A program made the translations under genes and the position numbers. DNA of 9,612 bases from a virus (taxonomy: Duplodnaviria; Heunggongvirae; Uroviricota; Caudoviricetes). Within the stretch, counting starts at the first letter, position 1. Each line of letters opens with the position of its first letter. Below are positions 1 to 9,612 of the stretch, piece after piece. The stretch lies in the IMG/VR virus record IMGVR_UViG_2636416140_000002. One strand, given 5' to 3'. Under the pieces are notes generated by a model, which did no database searches, had not been told where the DNA came from, and saw only the letters and a list, made by a program, of their open reading frames with translations.

Positions 1-533
1 GAAAAACCAGAGATAAGACAGCGCCAAAATATAAAGCGTTAGACATGACAGAGCTTTCCCTAAAGGTGGCAATCAGAACGATAGACCGACACGTAGGGGA
101 AGGATACGCGAAGGAACATCCCGACCTGATAAGCGCATTCATGACCACAGCAGCGGCAAACTTTGCCACGCTGACAGAACGGGAGATTGCCGAAGCGGAA
201 CAGGTAACAACCATCAACGTTAAAACCGGAGAGGTGGAATCATGAGCGAACCAAAATTTGGTGAAAAACTTTACAAGCACAACGGACGGATCACGATTCA
301 GCAAATAAGCGCAGCTACACCAGGCTGGTGGGTTGAAACAGACGAAGGATCATCAACCGTGGCATCATGGGCGCTTTGTGTGCTTAGTTACCCTGACCGC
401 GATGTGTATCAGGATATTCTGCCTGTGATATCCACTGACAAAGGCATGAAACCCGTAGACATCAAAAACATGGGTTTTCAGTGCGTAATGCTCACTGAAA
501 AAATGATGGAAGAGATGAAAAAGAATAACGCCG
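1..533 (+). repeat. Direct repeat copy 1, apparently identical to 716-1248; truncated by the window start
   Basis: Read directly: 1-533 matches 716-1248 base for base (offset 715). Identity ends at 533/534 in copy 1 and 1248/1249 in copy 2. The repeat may extend upstream of the window. Confidence 0.9.
45..245 (+). CDS. Hypothetical small protein (66 aa from ATG 45), copy 1; frame is open to the window start, so the true start may lie upstream
   Basis: ORF with decent codon usage; its stop overlaps the next ORF's start (ATGA at 242-245), suggesting translational coupling. Identical second copy at 760-960. No recognisable family. Confidence 0.5.
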   Translation: MTELSLKVAIRTIDRHVGEGYAKEHPDLISAFMTTAAANFATLTEREIAEAEQVTTINVKTGEVES

Positions 534-712
534 TGGGGAATTTAACAAAATTGAAACATAATTACCCACTTTCCCACCTGTATATACCCAAAAAAGTGGG
601 GAGTAAAAAATATATTGAAAAACATCACGTTAGAATCACCAAAAAAAGAGGTGGGGAGACGGTGGGTAATTTCAAAAAGTGGGGAGCAAAAGTGGGGAGT
701 AGTGGGGAATGA
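242..712 (+). CDS. Hypothetical protein, duplicated copy 1; first 97 codons identical to 957-1262, then reads through into the iteron region (probable chimeric C-terminus created by the duplication junction)
   Basis: ORF track 156 aa. C-terminal part is encoded by GTGGGGA repeats and A-tracts (VG/KK-rich translation), which looks non-native. Copy 2 ends 3 codons after the divergence point. Confidence 0.4.
   Translation: MSEPKFGEKLYKHNGRITIQQISAATPGWWVETDEGSSTVASWALCVLSYPDRDVYQDILPVISTDKGMKPVDIKNMGFQCVMLTEKMMEEMKKNNAVGNLTKLKHNYPLSHLYIPKKVGSKKYIEKHHVRITKKRGGETVGNFKKWGAKVGSSGE
533..711. repeat. Iteron-like array: at least 7 direct (A)GTGGGGA(G) repeats plus inverted half-sites (CCCACTTT, CCCACC), separated by A-tracts and an AT-rich core; putative replication origin
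   Basis: Direct GTGGGGA copies at about 533-539, 595-603, 651-658, 679-687, 691-699, 701-708 and variant GTGGGT at 662-667; inverted copies at 565-578; AT-rich stretch 541-650. Confidence 0.6.
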
Positions 713-960
713 ACAGAAAAACCAGAGATAAGACAGCGCCAAAATATAAAGCGTTAGACATGACAGAGCTTTCCCTAAAGGTGGCAATCAGAACGATAGA
801 CCGACACGTAGGGGAAGGATACGCGAAGGAACATCCCGACCTGATAAGCGCATTCATGACCACAGCAGCGGCAAACTTTGCCACGCTGACAGAACGGGAG
901 ATTGCCGAAGCGGAACAGGTAACAACCATCAACGTTAAAACCGGAGAGGTGGAATCATGA
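709..960 (+). CDS. Hypothetical small protein, copy 2 (83 aa from ATG 709; 66 aa if the start is ATG 760)
   Basis: Identical to the 45-245 ORF over the shared part. ATG 709 lies inside the last iteron with GGGGAG about 9 nt upstream; ATG 760 has no obvious SD. Stop overlaps the next start (ATGA). Confidence 0.5.
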   Translation: MNRKTRDKTAPKYKALDMTELSLKVAIRTIDRHVGEGYAKEHPDLISAFMTTAAANFATLTEREIAEAEQVTTINVKTGEVES

Positions 961-1248
961 GCGAACCAAAATTTGGTGAAAAACTTTACAAGCACAACGG
1001 ACGGATCACGATTCAGCAAATAAGCGCAGCTACACCAGGCTGGTGGGTTGAAACAGACGAAGGATCATCAACCGTGGCATCATGGGCGCTTTGTGTGCTT
1101 AGTTACCCTGACCGCGATGTGTATCAGGATATTCTGCCTGTGATATCCACTGACAAAGGCATGAAACCCGTAGACATCAAAAACATGGGTTTTCAGTGCG
1201 TAATGCTCACTGAAAAAATGATGGAAGAGATGAAAAAGAATAACGCCG
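716..1248 (+). repeat. Direct repeat copy 2 (identical to 1-533)
   Basis: See copy 1. The 715-bp period equals the 533-bp block plus the 182-bp iteron region, consistent with a tandem duplication of an iteron-plus-gene unit. Confidence 0.9.
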
Positions 1249-1262
1249 GATCGCTTCACTGA
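957..1262 (+). CDS. Hypothetical protein (101 aa), copy 2, probably the intact ancestral version
   Basis: ORF translationally coupled to the upstream small ORF; stop at 1260-1262 overlaps the SD of the downstream SSB gene. No recognisable domain by eye. Confidence 0.55.
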   Translation: MSEPKFGEKLYKHNGRITIQQISAATPGWWVETDEGSSTVASWALCVLSYPDRDVYQDILPVISTDKGMKPVDIKNMGFQCVMLTEKMMEEMKKNNAGSLH

Positions 1263-1271
1263 GGTGGCAAT

Positions 1272-1682
1272 ATGACAGCACAAATTGCAGCTTACGGGCG
1301 GCTGGTGGCTGACCCGCAGTTAAAGACCACCAGCAAGGGTACACAAATGACGATGGCGAGTATGGCGGCCCCCCTTCCGTGCAGCCAGGCAGATGACGGA
1401 ACGGCGACGATGTGGTTATCCGTCCTGGCATTTGGCAGACAGGCCGAATCACTGGCAAGGCACCGCAAGGGTGAACTCCTGACCGTGGCGGGTAACATGC
1501 AGATCAGCCAGTGGACCGGACAGAACGGGGAAACGCGGCAGGGTTATCAGGTTATTGCAGACAGCGTAATCAGTGCCCGTGCGGCACGTCCTGGCGGGAA
1601 CAGACGCAAAACCACAGGCACACAGGGTAATCAGCCACCAGCGGGAGACGATGACCCCTACGGTGATGATATTCCGTTCTGA
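1272..1682 (+). CDS. ssb: Single-stranded DNA-binding protein (SSB, OB-fold) of mobile-element type
   Basis: SD GAGGTGG at 1261-1267. OB-fold-like core (WLSVLAFGRQAESLARHRKGELLTVAGNMQISQWTGQNGETRQGYQVIADSV), Gly/Gln/Pro-rich linker and canonical acidic C-terminal tip DDDPYGDDIPF (compare E. coli SSB ending DDDIPF). Confidence 0.88.
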   Translation: MTAQIAAYGRLVADPQLKTTSKGTQMTMASMAAPLPCSQADDGTATMWLSVLAFGRQAESLARHRKGELLTVAGNMQISQWTGQNGETRQGYQVIADSVISARAARPGGNRRKTTGTQGNQPPAGDDDPYGDDIPF

Positions 1683-1694
1683 GGGGTGGGGACG

Positions 1695-1967
1695 ATGGTA
1701 CATGACCGCATAGCGGAAGAACTGGAGGCGAAAGGCTTTTACCGGAGAGCGTCGGCGCGATGGGGTGAAGTCATGCAACTGGTGGAGACAGACAAGGAAC
1801 GGCATCACATCACGATGCGACGGCTGGAATGTTCCAGGAAGGCACAGAGGCCACCGGAGCCGCCGGATAATTACGGAGACCTGAAAAAGGCGGTCGATCG
1901 CACTTATGCCGAAATGGGTATGGATGGTGCTGGTGATGAAATATGGCGAAATTACCAGGACAGATAA
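1695..1967 (+). CDS. Small putative transcriptional regulator, possibly PerC-like (ORF track start GTG 1686; ATG 1695 preferred)
   Basis: N-terminus MVHDRIAEELEAKGFYRRASARWGEVM resembles, from memory, PerC-family small activators; not verified by search. GAGG upstream of ATG 1695. Followed by a strong terminator. Confidence 0.5.
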   Translation: MVHDRIAEELEAKGFYRRASARWGEVMQLVETDKERHHITMRRLECSRKAQRPPEPPDNYGDLKKAVDRTYAEMGMDGAGDEIWRNYQDR

Positions 1968-1973
1968 TCACAC

Positions 1974-1998
1974 AGCCGGAGCAATCCGGCTTTTTGTC
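1974..1998 (+). terminator. Rho-independent terminator
   Basis: Stem AGCCGGA (1974-1980), loop GCAA, stem TCCGGCT (1985-1991), followed by a T-run (TTTTTGT). Confidence 0.75.
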
Positions 1999-2013
1999 AT
2001 GTTTTGTAAATTA

Positions 2014-2040
2014 TTTGTTCGTGGTTGTTCCACGTTGTTC
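2014..2040 (+). promoter_or_regulatory. Three TTGTTC hexamers at exact 10-bp phase (2015, 2025, 2035) upstream of the capsid operon; candidate regulator binding site or promoter element
   Basis: Read directly. The 15-mer TTGTTCCACGTTGTT (2025-2039) recurs exactly at 9392-9406. A possible weak -10 (TATTTT, 2057-2062) lies 16 bp downstream of the last hexamer. Confidence 0.45.
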
Positions 2041-2115
2041 GCTGACCGGATCGGCATATTTTACCCGACCTGAATCATGATTATTCTCGCCCGTGGTGCC
2101 AGGACGCTGGGGCCA

Positions 2116-2165
2116 TTTTCCCGCCTGTTAATGTGCTCGCCAATATTCATTACCAGGCGGGAAAA
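2116..2165 (+). promoter_or_regulatory. Perfect 12-bp inverted repeat TTTTCCCGCCTG / CAGGCGGGAAAA with 26-nt spacer in the capsid operon leader
   Basis: Arms at 2116-2127 and 2154-2165 are exact reverse complements. A 36-codon uORF (2077-2187) without SD spans both arms. Confidence 0.4.
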
Positions 2166-2255
2166 CGATCGGTGCGATTACTGATTTCCTTATGAAAAAC
2201 GGTTGAGTGTTTGCCGCGTCCTGGAGTTCCTTACTTAACCCCAGGACTTTTTTTT

Positions 2256-3413
2256 ATGCCGAGAATAATCGAATTACGCCAGCAGAAAACCGCCATTAAA
2301 AATCAGATGCGCGACATGCTGGAGAACGCGGAAAAAGAAAACCGCAGCCTTAACGATGCAGAGGGCGCAAAATTTGACGAATTACGCGCTAAAGCTGAAT
2401 CCCTCGATAAAGACATTTCCCGCCTTGAAGCCATTGCAGACGAAGAGCGCAGCAAGCCAGGTAAAAGCAGTCAGACCACTGACCCCGCAGAACTCCGCAA
2501 CTACATTCTGACAGGTGAAACCCGCGCATTAAGTACAGGCGTTCCCGCTGATGGTGGTTATACCGTTATCCCTGAACTGAACACCGAAATCATGCGAATG
2601 CTGGCGGATGAATCCACCATGCGCCGCATCTGTACCGTGAAGAAAATCAGCAGCAACGAGTTTAAGCAGCTTGTTTCCGCTGGCGGTGCGACCGTTAACC
2701 ACGGTGAAGAGGGTAAGGCACGCGAACAGACCAGCACCCCGCAGATTAACGAGGTGAGCATCAAGCTGTATCCGGTCTATGCGTACCCGCGCACCACACA
2801 GGAAATCGTGGATTTTTCCGATGTGGACATCCTTTCATGGCTGACGGGTGAGATTGGCGACACCTTCACGGAAACCGAAGAAAGCGATCTGGTTGTGGGC
2901 GACGGTGACAAAAAAGCAAAAGGTTTTTTATCCGTACCCCGTGCAGAGAAGAACGACAAAGAGCGTGATTTTGGTACGTTGCAGGTAATTAAACCTTCCG
3001 AATCTCTGGCGTGGACATCTGCGGACCCGCTGATCGACCTGAAATTTGCATTACGTAAAAAATACCGCAAAAACGCGGTCTGGGTGGTTAACTCCACGAC
3101 GGCGGCAAAACTTCAGAAGGTGAAGAACGCGAACGGTGATTATATCTGGCGCGACCGTTTACAGGCGGGTGATCCTGATACGTTGCTGGGCCTTCCGGTC
3201 GAATATCTGGAGTTTATGCCTGATAACGTTATTGCCCTGGGTGACTTCAAACGCGGTTACTACATTGTTGATCACGAAACAGGTGTTCGCACCAGACCGG
3301 ACAACCTGACAGAACCAGGATTCATCAAAATTTTCACGCAAAAATATTTAGGCGGTGGCGTGGTGGATTCGAACGCGATCAAGATTCTGGAACTGCCGGA
3401 AGACGACGATTAA
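2256..3413 (+). CDS. Phage major capsid protein, HK97 family, with N-terminal scaffolding (delta) domain
   Basis: 385 aa from ATG 2256 (ORF track starts at TTG 2211). Coiled-coil-like N-terminus (ELRQQKTAIKNQMRDMLENAEKENRSLNDAE...) followed by an HK97-fold-like body; AGGA 10 nt upstream of ATG. Confidence 0.92.
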   Translation: MPRIIELRQQKTAIKNQMRDMLENAEKENRSLNDAEGAKFDELRAKAESLDKDISRLEAIADEERSKPGKSSQTTDPAELRNYILTGETRALSTGVPADGGYTVIPELNTEIMRMLADESTMRRICTVKKISSNEFKQLVSAGGATVNHGEEGKAREQTSTPQINEVSIKLYPVYAYPRTTQEIVDFSDVDILSWLTGEIGDTFTETEESDLVVGDGDKKAKGFLSVPRAEKNDKERDFGTLQVIKPSESLAWTSADPLIDLKFALRKKYRKNAVWVVNSTTAAKLQKVKNANGDYIWRDRLQAGDPDTLLGLPVEYLEFMPDNVIALGDFKRGYYIVDHETGVRTRPDNLTEPGFIKIFTQKYLGGGVVDSNAIKILELPEDDD

Positions 3414-3423
3414 CAGCATACAG

Positions 3424-3452
3424 AAGGGGCTTAAAAGCCCCTTTAGTGTTTT
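3424..3452 (+). terminator. Hairpin immediately after the capsid gene (partial terminator or mRNA-stabilising stem-loop)
   Basis: AAGGGGC (3424-3430), loop TTAAAA, GCCCCTT (3437-3443), then TAGTGTTTT. The U-tract is interrupted, so read-through into the protease gene is likely. Confidence 0.5.
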
Positions 3453-4025
3453 ATGGGTGAAAAAATTATGAAGAGTATGGAAATCCGGTCATCGGAAATC
3501 ACCACCAGCGCCAGCAACACGCTTACAGGCTACGTTGTTCGCTGGGATAACCTTTCAGAGCTGCTATGGGGGGAGTTTTACGAAAAATTCCAGCGGGGAG
3601 CGTTTACTGAATGGCTTGCGGCGGGTAATGACGTTCGCGGCCTGTATGAGCATGACCACAGCATGTTACTGGGGCGCACCCGTTCCGGCACGCTGAAACT
3701 GGAAGAGGACGAAACAGGGTTACGCTTTGAACTGACCCCACCGGATACCAGTACAGGGCGCGACGTTATCGAACTGGTTAAGCGTGGGGACATCTCGGGG
3801 ATGAGCTTTGGCTTTCGCTCCCGTAAGGATGTATGGGATACCACAACAGATCCATGCGTGCGCACCGTGCTGGTGGCGGAACTGTACGAAATTACCGTTA
3901 CATCGGTACCGGCTTACCCCGATTCCGGCGTGGAGCTGGCCCGCCGTTCCCTGTATGAGCAGCACCCCGAAAAAATGCCGCGTGCGGATAATCGCCGCTG
4001 GTGGGCGGATTTAGCGGGGGTGTGA
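3453..4025 (+). CDS. Phage prohead (maturation) protease, HK97 family
   Basis: Motifs typical of HK97-type prohead proteases (GYVVRW..., EHDHSMLLGRTRSGTL, GMSFGF). Alternative starts at ATG 3468 and 3477; none has a clear SD. Confidence 0.9.
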   Translation: MGEKIMKSMEIRSSEITTSASNTLTGYVVRWDNLSELLWGEFYEKFQRGAFTEWLAAGNDVRGLYEHDHSMLLGRTRSGTLKLEEDETGLRFELTPPDTSTGRDVIELVKRGDISGMSFGFRSRKDVWDTTTDPCVRTVLVAELYEITVTSVPAYPDSGVELARRSLYEQHPEKMPRADNRRWWADLAGV

Positions 4026-4026
4026 T

Positions 4027-5238
4027 ATGTGGCCTTTCAGAAGAAAAAAAGAGCAGCGCAGCATGACGCTTGATGAGTTTATGGCGCTGGCTGGCACATC
4101 GAACACGGGGGCGGGTGAGTACGTATCATCGGGGACAGCGGAATCACTGCCCGCCGTCATGAACGCCGTCACGGTCATCTCTGAGGCGGTGGCTACCATG
4201 CCGTGTTACCTGTACCTGGTACGCAATGAGAAGGGGAAGGAGGCCCGAGAGTGGCTTGATTCTCATCCGGTCGATCACATCCTCAACGAGCGCCCGAACG
4301 CGTGGCAGACTCCCTACCAGTTTAAGCGAATGATGATCCGCCACTGCCTGTTAAACGGTAATGCTTATGCGGTGATTCAGTGGGGGCGTGATGGTTTTCC
4401 GGTGGCTTTACATCCTTACCCGCCGCAGTCGGTGAACGTGGAGCAGACAGGCGAACACAACTGGCGCTACTGCATCACTGACGCCTACACCGGAAACACC
4501 CGCAACTATTTACCGTGGGAGGTTCTCCACCTTCGTTACTCCACGGATGACGGTTTTATGGGGCGCTCACCTGTAACCATCTGCCGCGAATCGCTGGGGC
4601 TTGGGCTGGCCCAACAACGCCACGGCGCGAGCGTGATGCGTGATGGCATGATGGCGGCAGGGGTTATCACGTCAGGCGAATGGCTGGACGGCGTGAAGGG
4701 CAAACAGGCATTAGCCGCACTGGAACGCTACAAAGGGGCCAGAAACGCCGGAAAAACGCCCATCCTTGAAGGGGGTATGAGCTATCAGCAGCTGGGCATG
4801 AGTAATCAGGATGCTGAATGGCTGGCCTCCCGTCGCTTCACCATTGAAGACATCGCCCGAATGTTCAACGTCTCGCCGATTTTTTTGCAGGAATACAGCA
4901 ACAGCACCTACAGCAATTTCAGCGAGGCAAGCCGCGCATTTCTCACCATGACGATGCGCCCGTGGCTGGCGAACTTTGAGCAGCAGATAAAAAACGCCCT
5001 GCTGGTGGCCTCGCCTGTACCTGGTATCCGGTATCAGGTGGAGTTTGACAGCGCGGACCTGTTACGGGCCACACCAGGCGAACGCTTTGCCACCTATGAA
5101 CGCGGCATCAAATCCGGCGTTATGTGCCCGAACGAAGCCCGCGAACGTGAAGGGCTGTCCCCGCGTGATGGTGGTGATGAGTTCAGCCAGGCATGGAAAC
5201 AGGAAGTAAAAATCAGCGAGGGAGAAAAACCGGAATGA
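4027..5238 (+). CDS. Phage portal protein, HK97 family
   Basis: 403 aa. Start is 1 nt after the protease stop, with a GGGGG SD. Central and C-terminal regions look like HK97-type portals; acidic C-terminal tail. Alternative start ATG 4063. Confidence 0.92.
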   Translation: MWPFRRKKEQRSMTLDEFMALAGTSNTGAGEYVSSGTAESLPAVMNAVTVISEAVATMPCYLYLVRNEKGKEAREWLDSHPVDHILNERPNAWQTPYQFKRMMIRHCLLNGNAYAVIQWGRDGFPVALHPYPPQSVNVEQTGEHNWRYCITDAYTGNTRNYLPWEVLHLRYSTDDGFMGRSPVTICRESLGLGLAQQRHGASVMRDGMMAAGVITSGEWLDGVKGKQALAALERYKGARNAGKTPILEGGMSYQQLGMSNQDAEWLASRRFTIEDIARMFNVSPIFLQEYSNSTYSNFSEASRAFLTMTMRPWLANFEQQIKNALLVASPVPGIRYQVEFDSADLLRATPGERFATYERGIKSGVMCPNEAREREGLSPRDGGDEFSQAWKQEVKISEGEKPE

Positions 5239-5573
5239 ACATAGGGCGACTGCGTGACAGGGTAACGATTCAGACCCTGAAACAGACCAGGGATATAACC
5301 GGCGAAATACTCGAAACGTGGGAGGACGGTCACACACTCTGGGCAAGCGTGAACATGATCAGCAGCAAGGAGGCCATTTCATCGGGTGCAGAGCTGGCGA
5401 TTGGTACCGTAAGGATCTGGATACGGTACCGGAAGGACATCAACGCCACCAGCCGGATAAAGGTCAGTACGGGGCCGCTGGCGGGGCGTGTACTGAATAT
5501 CATCGGGCAGCCGCTGCCGGATGCCGCCAGGACACGCCTTGAAATTCTTTGTCGTGAGGGCGCGGAAAAATGA
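5235..5573 (+). CDS. Head-tail adaptor / head-closure protein (head-tail joining family)
   Basis: ATG 5235 overlaps the portal stop (ATGA). 112 aa with a pattern typical of phage head-tail joining proteins (RDRVTIQ..., ...WASV..., ...RIWIRYR...). ORF track's longer start at 5193 is less likely. Confidence 0.75.
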   Translation: MNIGRLRDRVTIQTLKQTRDITGEILETWEDGHTLWASVNMISSKEAISSGAELAIGTVRIWIRYRKDINATSRIKVSTGPLAGRVLNIIGQPLPDAARTRLEILCREGAEK

Positions 5574-5866
5574 CAGAAGAACTTATCACCCTGGAAGAAG
5601 TGAAACTCCATTGCCGCATCGATGGCGACGAGGAAGACCAGTTAATCAGCGGATACATTGCCGCATCGCTTGAGGCGTGCCAGATACATATAGGCAGGCG
5701 CTTTGATGACGGGCTGGAGTTCACGCCAGCCATAAAGATTGGCTGCATGATGTTTATCGCTCACCTGTACGAGAATCGCCAGCTGGTAGCGGATAACGCA
5801 AAAACGCGCGTACCCATGACGATTGGCGCGCTCTGGACGGCTTACCGTGATGTGGGGGTGTACTGA
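5570..5866 (+). CDS. gp6-like head-tail connector protein
   Basis: ATGA overlap with the upstream gene. N-terminus ITLEEVKLHCRIDGDEEDQLISGYIAASLEACQ is characteristic of gp6-like connector / DNA-packaging proteins. Confidence 0.82.
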   Translation: MTEELITLEEVKLHCRIDGDEEDQLISGYIAASLEACQIHIGRRFDDGLEFTPAIKIGCMMFIAHLYENRQLVADNAKTRVPMTIGALWTAYRDVGVY

Positions 5867-6306
5867 TGCCGTGGCAACCATTAAGACGATGCACAGAACC
5901 AGGCTGTAACAGGCGCGTGAAGTCCGGCAAGTGTGAGGAGCACAGGCGGGCGGCATGGCGTGCAGAGGATGCCAGACGAGGACACCGCCGCGCGCGTGGG
6001 TACTCCAGACAGTGGGACAAATACCGCGCCATGTATCTGAGTAAAAACCCGTTATGCGTGCGATGCCTTGAGAAGGGGATATATACGCCCGCCGTGGTGG
6101 TGGATCACATTATCCCGATTAATGGCGGTGATGATGTTCTCTTCTGGCCCGAATGGAACCATCAACCATTGTGCCAGGCGTGTCATAACCAGAAAACGAA
6201 ATGGCTTGATCCGGCAACAAAAAGCAAGCGTGCCGCAGGTGGATTTCATGAAGAGGAAGAACGGGCCGCTAACCGCAATAACTGGATGTATGACGCTGAT
6301 GAATGA
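5866..6306 (+). CDS. HNH endonuclease (packaging-associated, adjacent to terminase)
   Basis: Cys-rich N-terminus (C..PGC...GKCEEH) and HNH core (VVDHIIPINGGDD...NHQPLCQACHNQKT). TGATG overlap with the connector gene. Position just upstream of terS is typical of cos-type HK97-like systems. Confidence 0.9.
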   Translation: MPWQPLRRCTEPGCNRRVKSGKCEEHRRAAWRAEDARRGHRRARGYSRQWDKYRAMYLSKNPLCVRCLEKGIYTPAVVVDHIIPINGGDDVLFWPEWNHQPLCQACHNQKTKWLDPATKSKRAAGGFHEEEERAANRNNWMYDADE

Positions 6307-6472
6307 GCGGGAACAAAACCGCCTTATCCGTGGACTGATAAGGCAGCGTGACGCATGGAAGACACAGGAAACAGGGCATAAAGATAAAGCGTCAGGACGC
6401 GCAGAACGCATCACAGCGAAGCGATTAACCGACCGTGGCCGCGAGGTTATGGAATGTTTCCGCAATCGCTGA
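6299..6472 (+). CDS. Hypothetical small ORF (57 aa) in the HNH-terS interval; may instead be a displaced fragment of the terS 5' region
   Basis: ATG 6299 overlaps the HNH 3' end; weak SD. Sequence ...SGRAERITAKRLTDRGRE loosely resembles Arg/Lys-rich N-termini of small terminases. Low confidence. Confidence 0.3.
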   Translation: MNEREQNRLIRGLIRQRDAWKTQETGHKDKASGRAERITAKRLTDRGREVMECFRNR

Positions 6473-6542
6473 TGAGGCTGTATGACGGGGTGGGGGGCGT
6501 TTTCAGGACAAACCCGACCCCGCCTACCTGGATGACATCGCC

Positions 6543-6854
6543 GTGAAGCAGTGGCGGGAAAAATCGCGGCAGCTTGCGGAACGGGGAGACCTGACCCCCG
6601 CCGACTGGAGCAATCTGGAACTGTATTGTGTCAACTACTCCATTTACCGGAAAGCCGTCGCAGACCTTGCGGCGCGCGGGTTCAGCATTGTTAACAGTCA
6701 GGGCGGCGAGAGCAGAAACCCCGCATTAAGCGCGAAATCAGACGCTGAAAGGGTGATGATAAAAATGGCCTCCTTGCTCGGTTTTGACCCGATAAGCCGC
6801 CGTAAAAACCCACCGGAAACAGAAGAAGAGGACGAGCTTGACCGCCTGGAATAA
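6543..6854 (+). CDS. terS: Terminase small subunit, P27/HK97-gp1-like family; annotated in-frame part only, N-terminus appears frame-disrupted
   Basis: Conserved-looking core DLTPADWSNLELYCVNYSIYRKAV. The family motif appears to begin upstream of the first in-frame start (GTG 6543) as ...KPDPAYLDDIA in the same frame, which is closed by a stop at 6483-6485. A good SD plus ATG at 6454 is in the +1 frame. Confidence 0.8.
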   Translation: MKQWREKSRQLAERGDLTPADWSNLELYCVNYSIYRKAVADLAARGFSIVNSQGGESRNPALSAKSDAERVMIKMASLLGFDPISRRKNPPETEEEDELDRLE

Positions 6855-8499
6855 GTACGCAGAAGACGTAAAAACGGGCAAAATTCCGGCCTGTAAACGG
6901 CTGAAACAGGCCGTTAAACGGTACTTTTCGGACCTTAAAAGCCCCCTTTACACGTTCGATCGTGAGGTTGTGGAGCGGTTTATTGCCTTTTCCAGGGTGT
7001 GCCCGCACGTAAAAGGACCGATGCGTGGCAGACCCATTGAGCTGGAGCCGTGGCAGCAGTTCGCCTTTGCGTGCATCCTCGGCTTTAAGGTTAAGGCCAC
7101 CGGACGGCGCAAATACACGAGCGCCTTTATCGAAGTGCCGCGCAAAAATGCGAAATCCACGACCGCCGCGATTCTGGCTAACTGGTTTCTGATTATGGAG
7201 AACGGTCAGCAGGATATCTACACCGCAGCGGTGAGCCGTGACCAGGCGCGGATCGTCTTTGATGATGCGCGTCAGATGTGCCTTTTATCCCGACCGTTAC
7301 GCAGGCGGGTGAATATTCAGGCGCATAAGGTGATACACCCGAAAAGCAACAGCCTGTTAAAGCCGCTGGCAGCAAAAGCGGCAACCATCGAGGGAACAAA
7401 CCCAAGCCTTTCCATCGTGGACGAATACCACTTGCACCCCGATAACGGCGTTTATTCCGCGCTTGAGCTGGGGATGGGCGCACGTCCCGAAGGGCTGTTA
7501 TTTGCCATTACCACATCAGGCAGCAACGTCGTTTCAGCCTGTAAACAGCACTATGATTATTGCTGCCAGATCCTGGACGGCGAAGAGGTTAACGATTCAA
7601 TTTTTGTACTGATTTACGAACTGGACGACGAAAACGAGGTTGATGATCCGGCGATGTGGATAAAGGCGAACCCTAATATTGATGTTTCCGTCGATCGTGA
7701 AAAACTGGCCTCAACCATCCAGAAAGCGCGGGGTATTCCGTCGCAGTGGGTGGAGATGATGACAAAGCGATTTAATATCTGGTGCCAGGGGGCTACCCCG
7801 TGGATGGGTAACGGCGCATGGGCTGAGTGTGCCGGAACGTTCACGGAGGAAGATTTACACGGCCAGGAGTGTTACGCGGGGCTGGACTTATCATCAACCA
7901 GCGATATTTCCAGCGTGTGCTATGCCTTTCCGGTCGGTAAAACCATTATGCTGGTTTCCCGTCACTATCTGCCGGAATTTCAGCTACAGAACCCCGCCAA
8001 TAAAAACCGCGCCATCTATCGTCAGTGGGCTAAAGCAGGCTGGATACGCACAACGCCTGGCGACTGCATTGATTACGACCGGATCAGAGATGACATCATG
8101 CAGGACGCGGAGAAATTTAATATCAGGCTGGTGGGCTTTGATACGTGGAACGCCACGCATCTCAGAACGCAATTACAGGGGGCAGGTTTTGAGGTGGAGC
8201 CGTTCCCGCAAACCTACCTCAGATTCAGTCCGGCGGCGAAATCGTTCGAAGTTTTTGTTAACCGCAGGGTGATTGTGCATCGTGGCGATCCGGTGTTGTC
8301 CTGGTCGATGAGTAACGTCGTGATGCAGAGTGACGCGAACGCCAATATCAAGCCGAACAAGAAAAAATCACCGAACAAGATAGACCCGAGCGTGGCGGCG
8401 CTGATGGCGTTTGGTACATTCCAGGCAGAGCATGAGGATTTTGCTTTTGATATAAGCGACAGCCACCGCCAGAAACTGGAAGAATTTAGCGGGGTGTAA
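6838..8499 (+). CDS. terL: Terminase large subunit (ATPase and nuclease)
   Basis: 553 aa. TTG start with GAGGA SD 5 nt upstream, overlapping the terS 3' end. N-terminus AWNKYAEDVKTGKIPACKRLKQAV and ATPase region are typical of large terminases; acidic residues in the C-terminal nuclease part. Confidence 0.93.
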   Translation: MTAWNKYAEDVKTGKIPACKRLKQAVKRYFSDLKSPLYTFDREVVERFIAFSRVCPHVKGPMRGRPIELEPWQQFAFACILGFKVKATGRRKYTSAFIEVPRKNAKSTTAAILANWFLIMENGQQDIYTAAVSRDQARIVFDDARQMCLLSRPLRRRVNIQAHKVIHPKSNSLLKPLAAKAATIEGTNPSLSIVDEYHLHPDNGVYSALELGMGARPEGLLFAITTSGSNVVSACKQHYDYCCQILDGEEVNDSIFVLIYELDDENEVDDPAMWIKANPNIDVSVDREKLASTIQKARGIPSQWVEMMTKRFNIWCQGATPWMGNGAWAECAGTFTEEDLHGQECYAGLDLSSTSDISSVCYAFPVGKTIMLVSRHYLPEFQLQNPANKNRAIYRQWAKAGWIRTTPGDCIDYDRIRDDIMQDAEKFNIRLVGFDTWNATHLRTQLQGAGFEVEPFPQTYLRFSPAAKSFEVFVNRRVIVHRGDPVLSWSMSNVVMQSDANANIKPNKKKSPNKIDPSVAALMAFGTFQAEHEDFAFDISDSHRQKLEEFSGV

Positions 8500-9157: not shown

Positions 9158-9301
9158 TATCAGTGGCAACCATAACGACTTTCGTTACGGTTGATGCTTT
9201 TACCCCATTGGGGGAAAGGTATTACGATAATCATAACACCTACCGAACAGGTAAAGCCCACCAGCCTGATTAACGTTTAACCGGAAAAAAATTCCGGTAG
9301 G

Positions 9302-9492: not shown

Positions 9493-9612
9493 TCAATGTG
9501 TTATGCGAAATAAGTTATATATAACAGCAATAAATAATGCGAGAATAAACGGCACGATGATCTCGGCGGCAAAACGGATACCGCAGAGAATAATGACCAG
9601 CATTCCCAACAT
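9493..9612 (-). CDS. 3' end of a minus-strand ORF encoding a hydrophobic (membrane) segment; ATG sits exactly at the window edge, so it is either a complete 39-aa small membrane protein or the C-terminus of a longer flanking gene
   Basis: Reverse-strand translation [39 protein letters not shown], stop at 9493-9495. GC-rich third positions in the first 20 codons suggest real coding. Not in the ORF track because it is under 60 aa within the window. Confidence 0.4.

Follow-up and report, generated by a model that had tools for sequence, protein, structure and literature searches.

Does the perfect direct repeat at the start of this record reflect a tandem duplication of a replication-origin unit in a bacterial genome, or did it come into being when that genome was assembled? 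The window, by which we mean the whole stretch of DNA analyzed here, is the entire WGS contig ANAN01000208.1 (9,612 bp) of GCA_000815945.1, a fragmented Shigella flexneri draft of at least 208 contigs; a literature search gave no paper on this assembly. The sequence-only reading of the window had proposed a perfect duplication of positions 1-533 and 716-1248 with a period of 715 bp, separated by 182 bp of iteron-like, origin-like sequence, and had regarded the whole as a tandem duplication of an origin together with two small genes (here orf83 and orf101, named for the length of their products).

The repeat and its novel junction

Pairwise comparison within the window bears out the repeat base for base: the two segments are identical without a single mismatch (100%), and the identity breaks off at 534 versus 1249, the following 182 bases being just 24% alike. 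The 715-bp unit is present about 1.75 times, head to tail, with one novel junction (J1); its left end lies inside the third iteron of the origin and its right end four codons short of the orf101 stop. A single tandem duplication, as had been supposed, is the simplest model for this arrangement, and it would start inside the iteron block. Because the contig is complete and the first copy of the repeat (segment A) starts at its first base, position 1 is the end of the record and not a boundary of the repeat, which may continue upstream of base 1; the further iteron block that had been predicted there would lie beyond the record. A simple tandem duplication leaves unexplained why the contig begins 182 bp inside the unit; this start falls at the boundary between the rep-ori and orf83 modules, where contigs of other assemblies (L006, L007) also start.

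Alignment to relatives gives the two parental sequences of J1 in the single-copy contig L008 as GGGGAGAG/TGGGGAATTT and AATAACGCCG/GATCGCTTC, where the slash marks the breakpoint; J1 itself reads ...GAATAACGCCG/TGGGGAATTTAAC... in longer left context and ...AACGCCG/TGGGGAATT... in short form. The microhomology amounts to 1 bp, a G that is common to both parents and rebuilds the iteron core at J1, and the parent of the right end breaks after the first base of orf101 codon 98. No J1-spanning k-mer of at least 14 nt occurs in the 7 related loci checked, among them a second S. flexneri island described below; a path through shared sequence therefore cannot yield J1, which needs either reads that carry it or a blunt join. 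With that second island (K-304 type), the window shares an unbroken stretch across 1245-1299 but no sequence at 534, so that neither 534 nor 1248 is a branch point of the assembly graph, given the known second island. With regard to the edges of segment A, 716/717 is a mosaic boundary and 1248 is not, the nearest one lying at about 1300. A simple de Bruijn path error was rejected as the source of J1, since no spanning k-mer of this length is shared with the related loci checked and the second island sets no graph boundary at 534 or 1248.

The breakpoint after the first base of codon 98 means that merely the last four residues of orf101 (GSLH) are swapped for 59 residues read from the spacer. 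The in-frame fusion of the first copy to the spacer that had been read from the sequence is thereby confirmed, the parent being the 101-aa frame listed in Table 1. An exact look-up in an index of 153 billion genes finds the fusion protein as RefSeq WP_252707883.1 [Shigella flexneri], on 1 contig. The frame of the fusion tail is also open across the single-copy origin (P0004, P0005), and we regard the fusion ORF as incidental; on hundreds of contigs this origin-crossing frame is annotated as 'hypothetical proteins' of 62-74 aa, which are spurious. The two small genes themselves belong to families without an assigned function. For orf83, Pfam, NCBIfam, PADLOC and PDB sequences gave no match, and a single-sequence AF2 model shows a helical hairpin at a pLDDT of 66, too poor for a fold search; the gene is conserved more widely among islands than orf101. 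For orf101, Pfam, NCBIfam and PADLOC gave no match, and the PDB search returned two non-significant hits, both UvrA (E = 0.12 and 0.41); the single-sequence AF2 model (pLDDT 39) is unusable. The features of the window are collected in Table 1.

Table 1. Features of the 9,612-bp window; a slash in the junction row marks the breakpoint.
Feature	Position	Strand	Description
Repeat copy 1 (segment A)	1..533	+	100% identical to 716-1248; base 1 is the record end; holds orf83 minus its first 2-3 codons (frame 3-245, cut by the contig end) and the first 97 codons + 1 base of orf101
Fusion ORF	242..712	+	156 aa; orf101 residues 1-97 + 59 residues read through the origin
Novel junction J1	533..534	.	...AATAACGCCG / TGGGGAATTTAAC...
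Internal origin copy (segment b2)	534..715	+	Most of the island's PICI-type origin, without the first two left iterons; rebuilt left iteron 533-539, inverted pair ~563-578, middle iteron 596-602, AT-rich stretch ~603-650, right iteron set 651-708
orf83, intact copy	709..960	+	phrog_1231, family without assigned function
Repeat copy 2 (segment A)	716..1248	+	Runs on into native downstream sequence
orf101, intact copy	957..1262	+	phrog_27268, family without assigned function
Single-strand DNA-binding protein (ssb)	1272..1682	+	PF00436, E = 2.4e-15; replication module
PerC-family transcriptional activator (perC)	1695..1967	+	PF06069, E = 3e-43
Terminator-like hairpin	1974-1991		After perC
cfPICI capsid/packaging module	2256..8499	+	Pfam, PHROGs (capsid, HNH, TerS); in order HK97-type capsid, S78 protease, portal, head closure, connector, HNH, P27-family TerS, TerL
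Chromosomal tqsA 5' flank, island right end	9521..9612	.	Empty-site genomes match here only

A capsid-forming island in tqsA and its replication origin

The contig covers the right two-thirds of a capsid-forming phage-inducible chromosomal island (cfPICI), with tqsA as the insertion site. K-12 and other empty-site genomes show a 100% match that is confined to the chromosomal flank at the right end of the window, and the insertion in tqsA is shown in one relative (L003). In annotated relatives of the island from complete E. coli genomes, the genes follow the order integrase, HTH/AlpA, an Icd-like gene, small genes, a DUF4222 gene and a RepA-family helicase gene, and then the origin, the 83-aa gene, the 101-aa gene, ssb, perC, and the capsid and packaging genes. 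The left module of this series would lie upstream of the contig start, and it is found in relatives with 0-2 mismatches to the window; its domains there include an integrase (PF00589), AlpA (PF05930, in L009) and a RepA-family AAA_25 helicase (PF13481), with the order kept in three relatives (L001-L003). The packaging module carries PF05065, PF04586, PF04860, PF05521, PF05135, PF01844 and PF05119, as well as PF03354 with PF20441.

Prototypical cfPICIs such as EcCIEDL933 (Alqurainy et al., bioRxiv 10.1101/2022.09.08.507074; PMC10085698) share with this island the set and order of capsid and packaging genes, the upstream integrase, AlpA and replicase (present here in the clonal relatives), the lack of tail and lysis genes, and a size of about 15 kb within a chromosomal gene. 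No tail or holin/lysis gene occurs among all genes of the elements in L008, L009 and L003 (about 15 kb between the tqsA fragments), and tail and lysis genes are 'forbidden' components in the SatelliteFinder model for cfPICIs (PMC10085698). Induction of cfPICIs by a helper phage, and packaging in their own small capsids with helper tails, have been assayed for the family (bioRxiv 10.1101/2022.09.08.507074); the island studied here differs from described cfPICIs by the 715-bp duplication in the replication module and by a 97-bp deletion that removes the start of terS. The region is unmatched in the phage collection, so it is not a phage fragment. Rfam finds no family in the window, and no promoter-like sites were found in 1-2300.

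By analogy with tested islands of this kind, the spacer between the two copies is most of a PICI-type replication origin. Its AT-rich stretch is flanked by two sets of AAAAGTGGGGAG iterons, in line with the iteron-like character first read from the sequence: GTGGGGA is found 9 times in the window where 1.34 would be expected, a count that 0 of 200 shuffles reach, and six of the nine lie within 533-708. One GTGGGTA and two inverted copies are present as well. In single-copy relatives the origin (about 200-210 bp, non-coding) is situated directly 3' of the RepA-family helicase gene. In L008 it consists, in order, of three AAAAGTGGGGAG-type iterons, two inverted copies, a middle iteron, an AT-rich trough (GC 0.30 at 6690-6749) and five further iterons, the left set spanning 6613-6648 and the right set 6753-6822; the first iteron begins at 6613 and so overlaps the stop codon of the RepA gene, which ends at 6614, and the same arrangement is seen in L001 and L002. 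The iteron core changes with the rep allele, being GTGGGGAG in L008, GTGGGTGG or GTGGTGG in L002 and GTGAGG in L003, whereas the 85/83-bp spacing of the iterons is conserved across rep alleles; an island of the DUF927 primase type (L005) has an unrelated iteron, TAACCCGCA. Islands that differ in their rep-ori modules are homologous from window position 717 (or 702) onward. The PICI-type geometry, the location directly 3' of rep and the co-variation of iterons with the rep allele together uphold the earlier view of the spacer as origin-like.

[quoted passage not shown] 2018, PMC6092414), and it is from this segment that replication by the present allele is predicted. The arrangement is that of this and other PICI/SaPI origins (PMC6092414): the initiator gene is followed immediately on its 3' side by the origin, an AT-rich stretch has a set of short iterons on either side, and the iterons are specific to the rep allele. 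The initiator of EcCICFT073 is a Pri-Rep protein, whereas the island here has a RepA-family (AAA_25) helicase; moreover, most of the origin is present again in this record, 533 bp downstream of the expected place of the first copy. The helicase/initiator of the island itself would bind the iterons and melt the AT-rich stretch, as in the tested PICI and SaPI replicons. Since the unit begins inside the third iteron, the internal origin is left without two of the three left iterons.

Distribution of the repeat and competing explanations

Every relative examined has a single copy of the unit, including contigs that are identical or nearly identical to the window, which answers the comparison with related elements that had been proposed along with the duplication. 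A 240-bp query across J1 against 5,426 complete E. coli genomes returned solely two-piece matches from single-copy islands, and queries with 2.2 kb and with the whole window found no match with the duplicated spacing in complete E. coli genomes. Exact J1 patterns are likewise absent from GTDB representative genomes, JGI metagenomes and IMG/VR. Among 35 IMG/VR islands, 23 have segment A, each of them once (0 of 23 with two copies), and the contigs that encode exactly orf101 (24 read) all show one of three single-copy gene layouts, the source contig excepted. Three contigs fetched to stand for these 24 (L008, L009 and L010) have one copy and differ from the window at 0-3 positions: L008 shows no mismatch over the 9,087 bp covered by window 533-6524 (L008 6640-12631) and 6518-9612, and the other two have 1-3 mismatches. 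These clonal relatives thus differ from the window by structure only. The duplication is private to one draft record, and it is a one-off recent event or an assembly error, not an evolved feature. That J1 occurs in a single record, and that the repeat touches a contig end of a fragmented draft, count against a simple duplication; independent support for J1 was found neither in a second assembly nor in related isolates among the records searched.

A second structural change distinguishes the window from L008, in which 97 bp are present that the window lacks: 90 bp and one copy of the 7-bp direct repeat CCCCGCC, at window 6518-6524. The deletion takes out the start codon of terS together with an AT-rich leader. 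The deleted form is absent from complete E. coli genomes and from the 35 IMG/VR loci; the identical deletion junction is found in a separate, decayed cfPICI-like island by phoQ in S. flexneri K-304, K-671 and SFBU1023. Identity between this second island and the window is 93% in segment A and 97% in the packaging module; the homology starts at window 717, and the island has a D5_N-type rep. It carries different alleles at 6438 and 6536, and the window has the tqsA-island alleles at both, so the change amounts to a patch of at most 97 bp, which could stem from gene conversion, from a second slippage at the same repeat or from cross-talk between the islands during assembly. Many contigs start at a position 2-8 bases away from the right edge of the deletion (6518-6524); a DNA hairpin upstream of terS, considered as the cause of these recurrent starts, shows nothing unusual (z = 0.94). 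It is rather unlikely that the origin-anchored duplication and the 97-bp deletion are both real and both mark decay of the satellite after its transfer into Shigella. In that case template switching at the iteron array during replication of the island would have produced the duplication, giving two origins in cis, and the deletion would have followed from faulty rejoining of packaged DNA ends or from gene conversion by the resident second island.

The explanation that we prefer, to which we give just short of an even chance, is that J1 is real DNA and marks a tandem duplication that is private, very recent and non-homologous, with a single base pair of microhomology. Spontaneous tandem duplications that arise in enterobacteria by illegitimate (microhomology) recombination are head-to-tail, show zero divergence and 0-2 bp of microhomology at the joint, are private to an isolate and are expected to be unstable. 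The repeat described here resembles them in its head-to-tail copies, zero divergence, short microhomology and restriction to one isolate, and differs in that the unit is small (715 bp), one of its ends lies inside an iteron array and the duplication itself is putative. It could have been generated by illegitimate recombination or by template switching, one end falling in the iteron array, and the second origin (with two of three left iterons missing), the second orf83 and the 156-aa read-through ORF would be incidental consequences. A perfect tandem repeat of 533-715 bp would easily be lost by homologous recombination in a recombination-proficient host, which agrees with copies that have not diverged and with relatives that all lack the duplication. 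The exact repeat and the clean junction support a real event, as does the complete agreement of the contig with an independent assembly (L008) apart from J1 and the 97-bp deletion; the contig keeps the tqsA-island alleles at all of the roughly 170 differences from the second island, even across identical runs as long as 442 bp, which shows that repeats of a comparable kind were resolved correctly in the assembly. Quite possible, if doubtful on balance, is an assembly artefact, in which the genome has one copy and segment A was placed a second time, directly against the origin segment, by the assembler, the scaffolder or the gap closer, or in which a chimeric read or library junction was taken in at the contig end. 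False tandem duplications in draft assemblies result from scaffolding or gap-closure joins of overlapping or repeated contigs, and the present case is similar in having a perfect repeat at a contig end, in one draft, with a second similar element in the genome; it is dissimilar in that the left piece, at 533 bp, is contained wholly within the right piece, and in that the join is blunt and away from the branch points of the known second island. An artefact is favored by a perfect repeat that runs from base 1 of a whole contig in a fragmented draft, by the occurrence of J1 in this record alone while clonal relatives have a single copy, and by the graph-complicating presence of the second related island, whose junction is matched by the second anomaly of the same contig. 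Both contig ends, the start (equivalent to 716) and the end (9612), fall within 1-2 bases of contig ends in other assemblies, and the right edge of the 97-bp deletion lies near the recurrent contig start noted above, coincidences which suggest that the ends were set by the assembly graph. The prior odds also point this way, since local misassembly is far commoner than a fixed 0.7-kb duplication without flanking homology. Against it, the lack of shared k-mers excludes a de Bruijn path and a blunt join needs 534 and 1248 as graph boundaries, for which the K-304-type island offers no reason; the contig is, moreover, otherwise free of errors and cleanly separated from the 97%-identical second island.

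A further explanation, in our judgment quite improbable, accepts J1 as real and places something else than the origin segment upstream of base 1, for instance an IS element or another rep-ori module; in this hybrid structure the left part of one island, up to the truncated orf101, would be joined illegitimately to the origin segment and onward sequence of another. The contig starts exactly at a module boundary, where the homology between islands with different rep-ori modules sets in, and multi-island genomes have contigs that start at the 717-equivalent position. If the rep-ori upstream were repeated, assembly with read pairs would produce precisely A-b2-A-C, with A at the start of the path, and the S. 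flexneri second island does have a rep of another type (D5_N). Such a structure requires two islands plus an illegitimate event, where a simple duplication takes a single event; at base 1 the contig has G, as the tqsA island does at 716, and not the A of the resident second island; the first copy of segment A is 100% of the tqsA-island type; and the clonal relatives, whose contigs are unbroken for 18.6 kb, show no such second island. Amplification under selection, a subset of real duplication in which the island or its host would benefit from having two origins or from twice the dose of orf83 and orf101, is highly improbable. The option had been raised from the sequence, and nothing speaks for it directly, although the unit does hold an origin and two conserved small genes: the junction is confined to one record and no related island has two copies, the second orf101 is truncated and fused to non-coding sequence, and the internal origin lacks two iterons. 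The same island has also lost the start codon of terS, which makes it more likely to be decaying than being optimized.

Implications for phage satellites

The duplication carries little biological weight, for it concerns a known kind of phage satellite and a known kind of origin and is limited to one draft record. If J1 is real, it would provide a clean example of illegitimate duplication with one end in an iteron array, and if the duplication and the 97-bp deletion both mark decay of the island, structural mutations in phage satellites would be concentrated at origins and cos sites. For annotation, WP_252707883.1 is the product of J1 and the 62-74-aa proteins are read-through of the origin, and neither should be treated as genes. 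The rep-ori segment of these islands is a cassette with a sharp right boundary at 716/717 and with iterons that track the rep allele, which aids the annotation of replication origins in cfPICIs.

Exchange of the rep-ori cassette and mosaicism in ssb

Homology to the window begins within a sharp module boundary at the start of orf83, one of the two small genes of the 715-bp repeat, in islands that carry unrelated rep-ori cassettes: from position 3074 in L005, an island with a DUF927-type primase, and from 9622 in L029, a locus of S. flexneri K-304. The cassette types that meet this boundary comprise a RepA-family helicase, a DUF927 primase and a D5_N primase, and the rep gene is swapped between islands together with its origin as a single cassette. 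The N-terminal half of ssb forms a divergent patch, with dense mismatches to both L005 and the annotated E. coli relative L001, and its flanks are nearly identical to these two islands; this patch is a mosaic exchange within ssb. The coordinates of these and the other features are collected in the table.

Features of the window and their positions
Feature	Position	Location or remark
Purine-rich origin, open reading frame	534-712	+ strand
Module boundary	702-717	start of orf83
Divergent patch	1301-1505	N-terminal half of ssb
Alleles flanking the deletion junction	6438 and 6536	differ from phoQ-site island
97-bp deletion	6518-6524	flanked by 7-bp direct repeat CCCCGCC
Shared contig starts	6526-6528	beside terS
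Inverted repeat, left arm	8122-8139	terL coding region
Inverted repeat, right arm	9253-9270	non-coding DNA close to the right end of the island
Shared contig ends	9610-9612	92 bp into tqsA

An open frame across the origin and a conserved inverted repeat

The origin itself constitutes an open reading frame (P0004, P0005, P0015), annotated in single-copy islands as hypothetical proteins of 62-74 aa, of which P0004 is present on 441 contigs. These proteins cluster with the orf101 family at 90% identity via the 156-aa fusion protein, which joins orf101 residues to the origin frame, and they are probably annotation artefacts.

Toward the other end of the island, a perfect 18-nt inverted repeat (ATCAGGCTGGTGGGCTTT / AAAGCCCACCAGCCTGAT) has both arms conserved exactly in about 21 independent loci, divergent islands included, with a spacing of 1061-1170 nt between them. 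It could serve in long-range pairing or as a regulatory element.

Recurrent contig starts and ends

The exact 108-aa partial TerS was found in 35 blocks of the collection in the 153-billion-gene index, and all ten contigs fetched (L011-L020) start within the same three bases beside terS. These contigs derive from varied assemblers and sources (Logan, MEGAHIT, metaSPAdes, NCBI), and their alleles are 92-99.9% identical to the window. Despite these starts, the sequence to the left is kept in L001, L002, L003 and the single-copy relative L008, and a search for an unusual hairpin at the start site found none. A physical end of the DNA (cos) could explain the shared starts, as could a mosaic boundary shared with an unsampled class of element.

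The right end of the window coincides, within 2 bases, with the end of eight other contigs (L021-L028), mostly metagenomic. Across eight loci that extend further, no polymorphism was found over the 90 bp past 9612. These ends could reflect a hot spot at which, for instance, an IS element inserts.

The terS deletion and a second S. flexneri island

Relative to otherwise identical relatives, the window lacks 97 bp (L008 12632-12721), and with them the terS ATG and AT-rich leader. The identical junction occurs in S. flexneri K-304, K-671 and SFBU1023, in another island at the phoQ site where the flanking alleles differ; it was not found in complete E. coli genomes, nor in 35 IMG/VR loci. The deletion may stem from gene conversion involving both islands, from repeated slippage or from assembly cross-talk.

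In K-304 and K-671, the second island is a decayed, cfPICI-like element between roxA and phoQ (L029/L030, about 3,800-18,300), in which the integrase is fragmented, the capsid gene split, TerL shortened, and the HNH gene fragmented or not called. An S. flexneri genome with the tqsA island as well would carry two related satellites.
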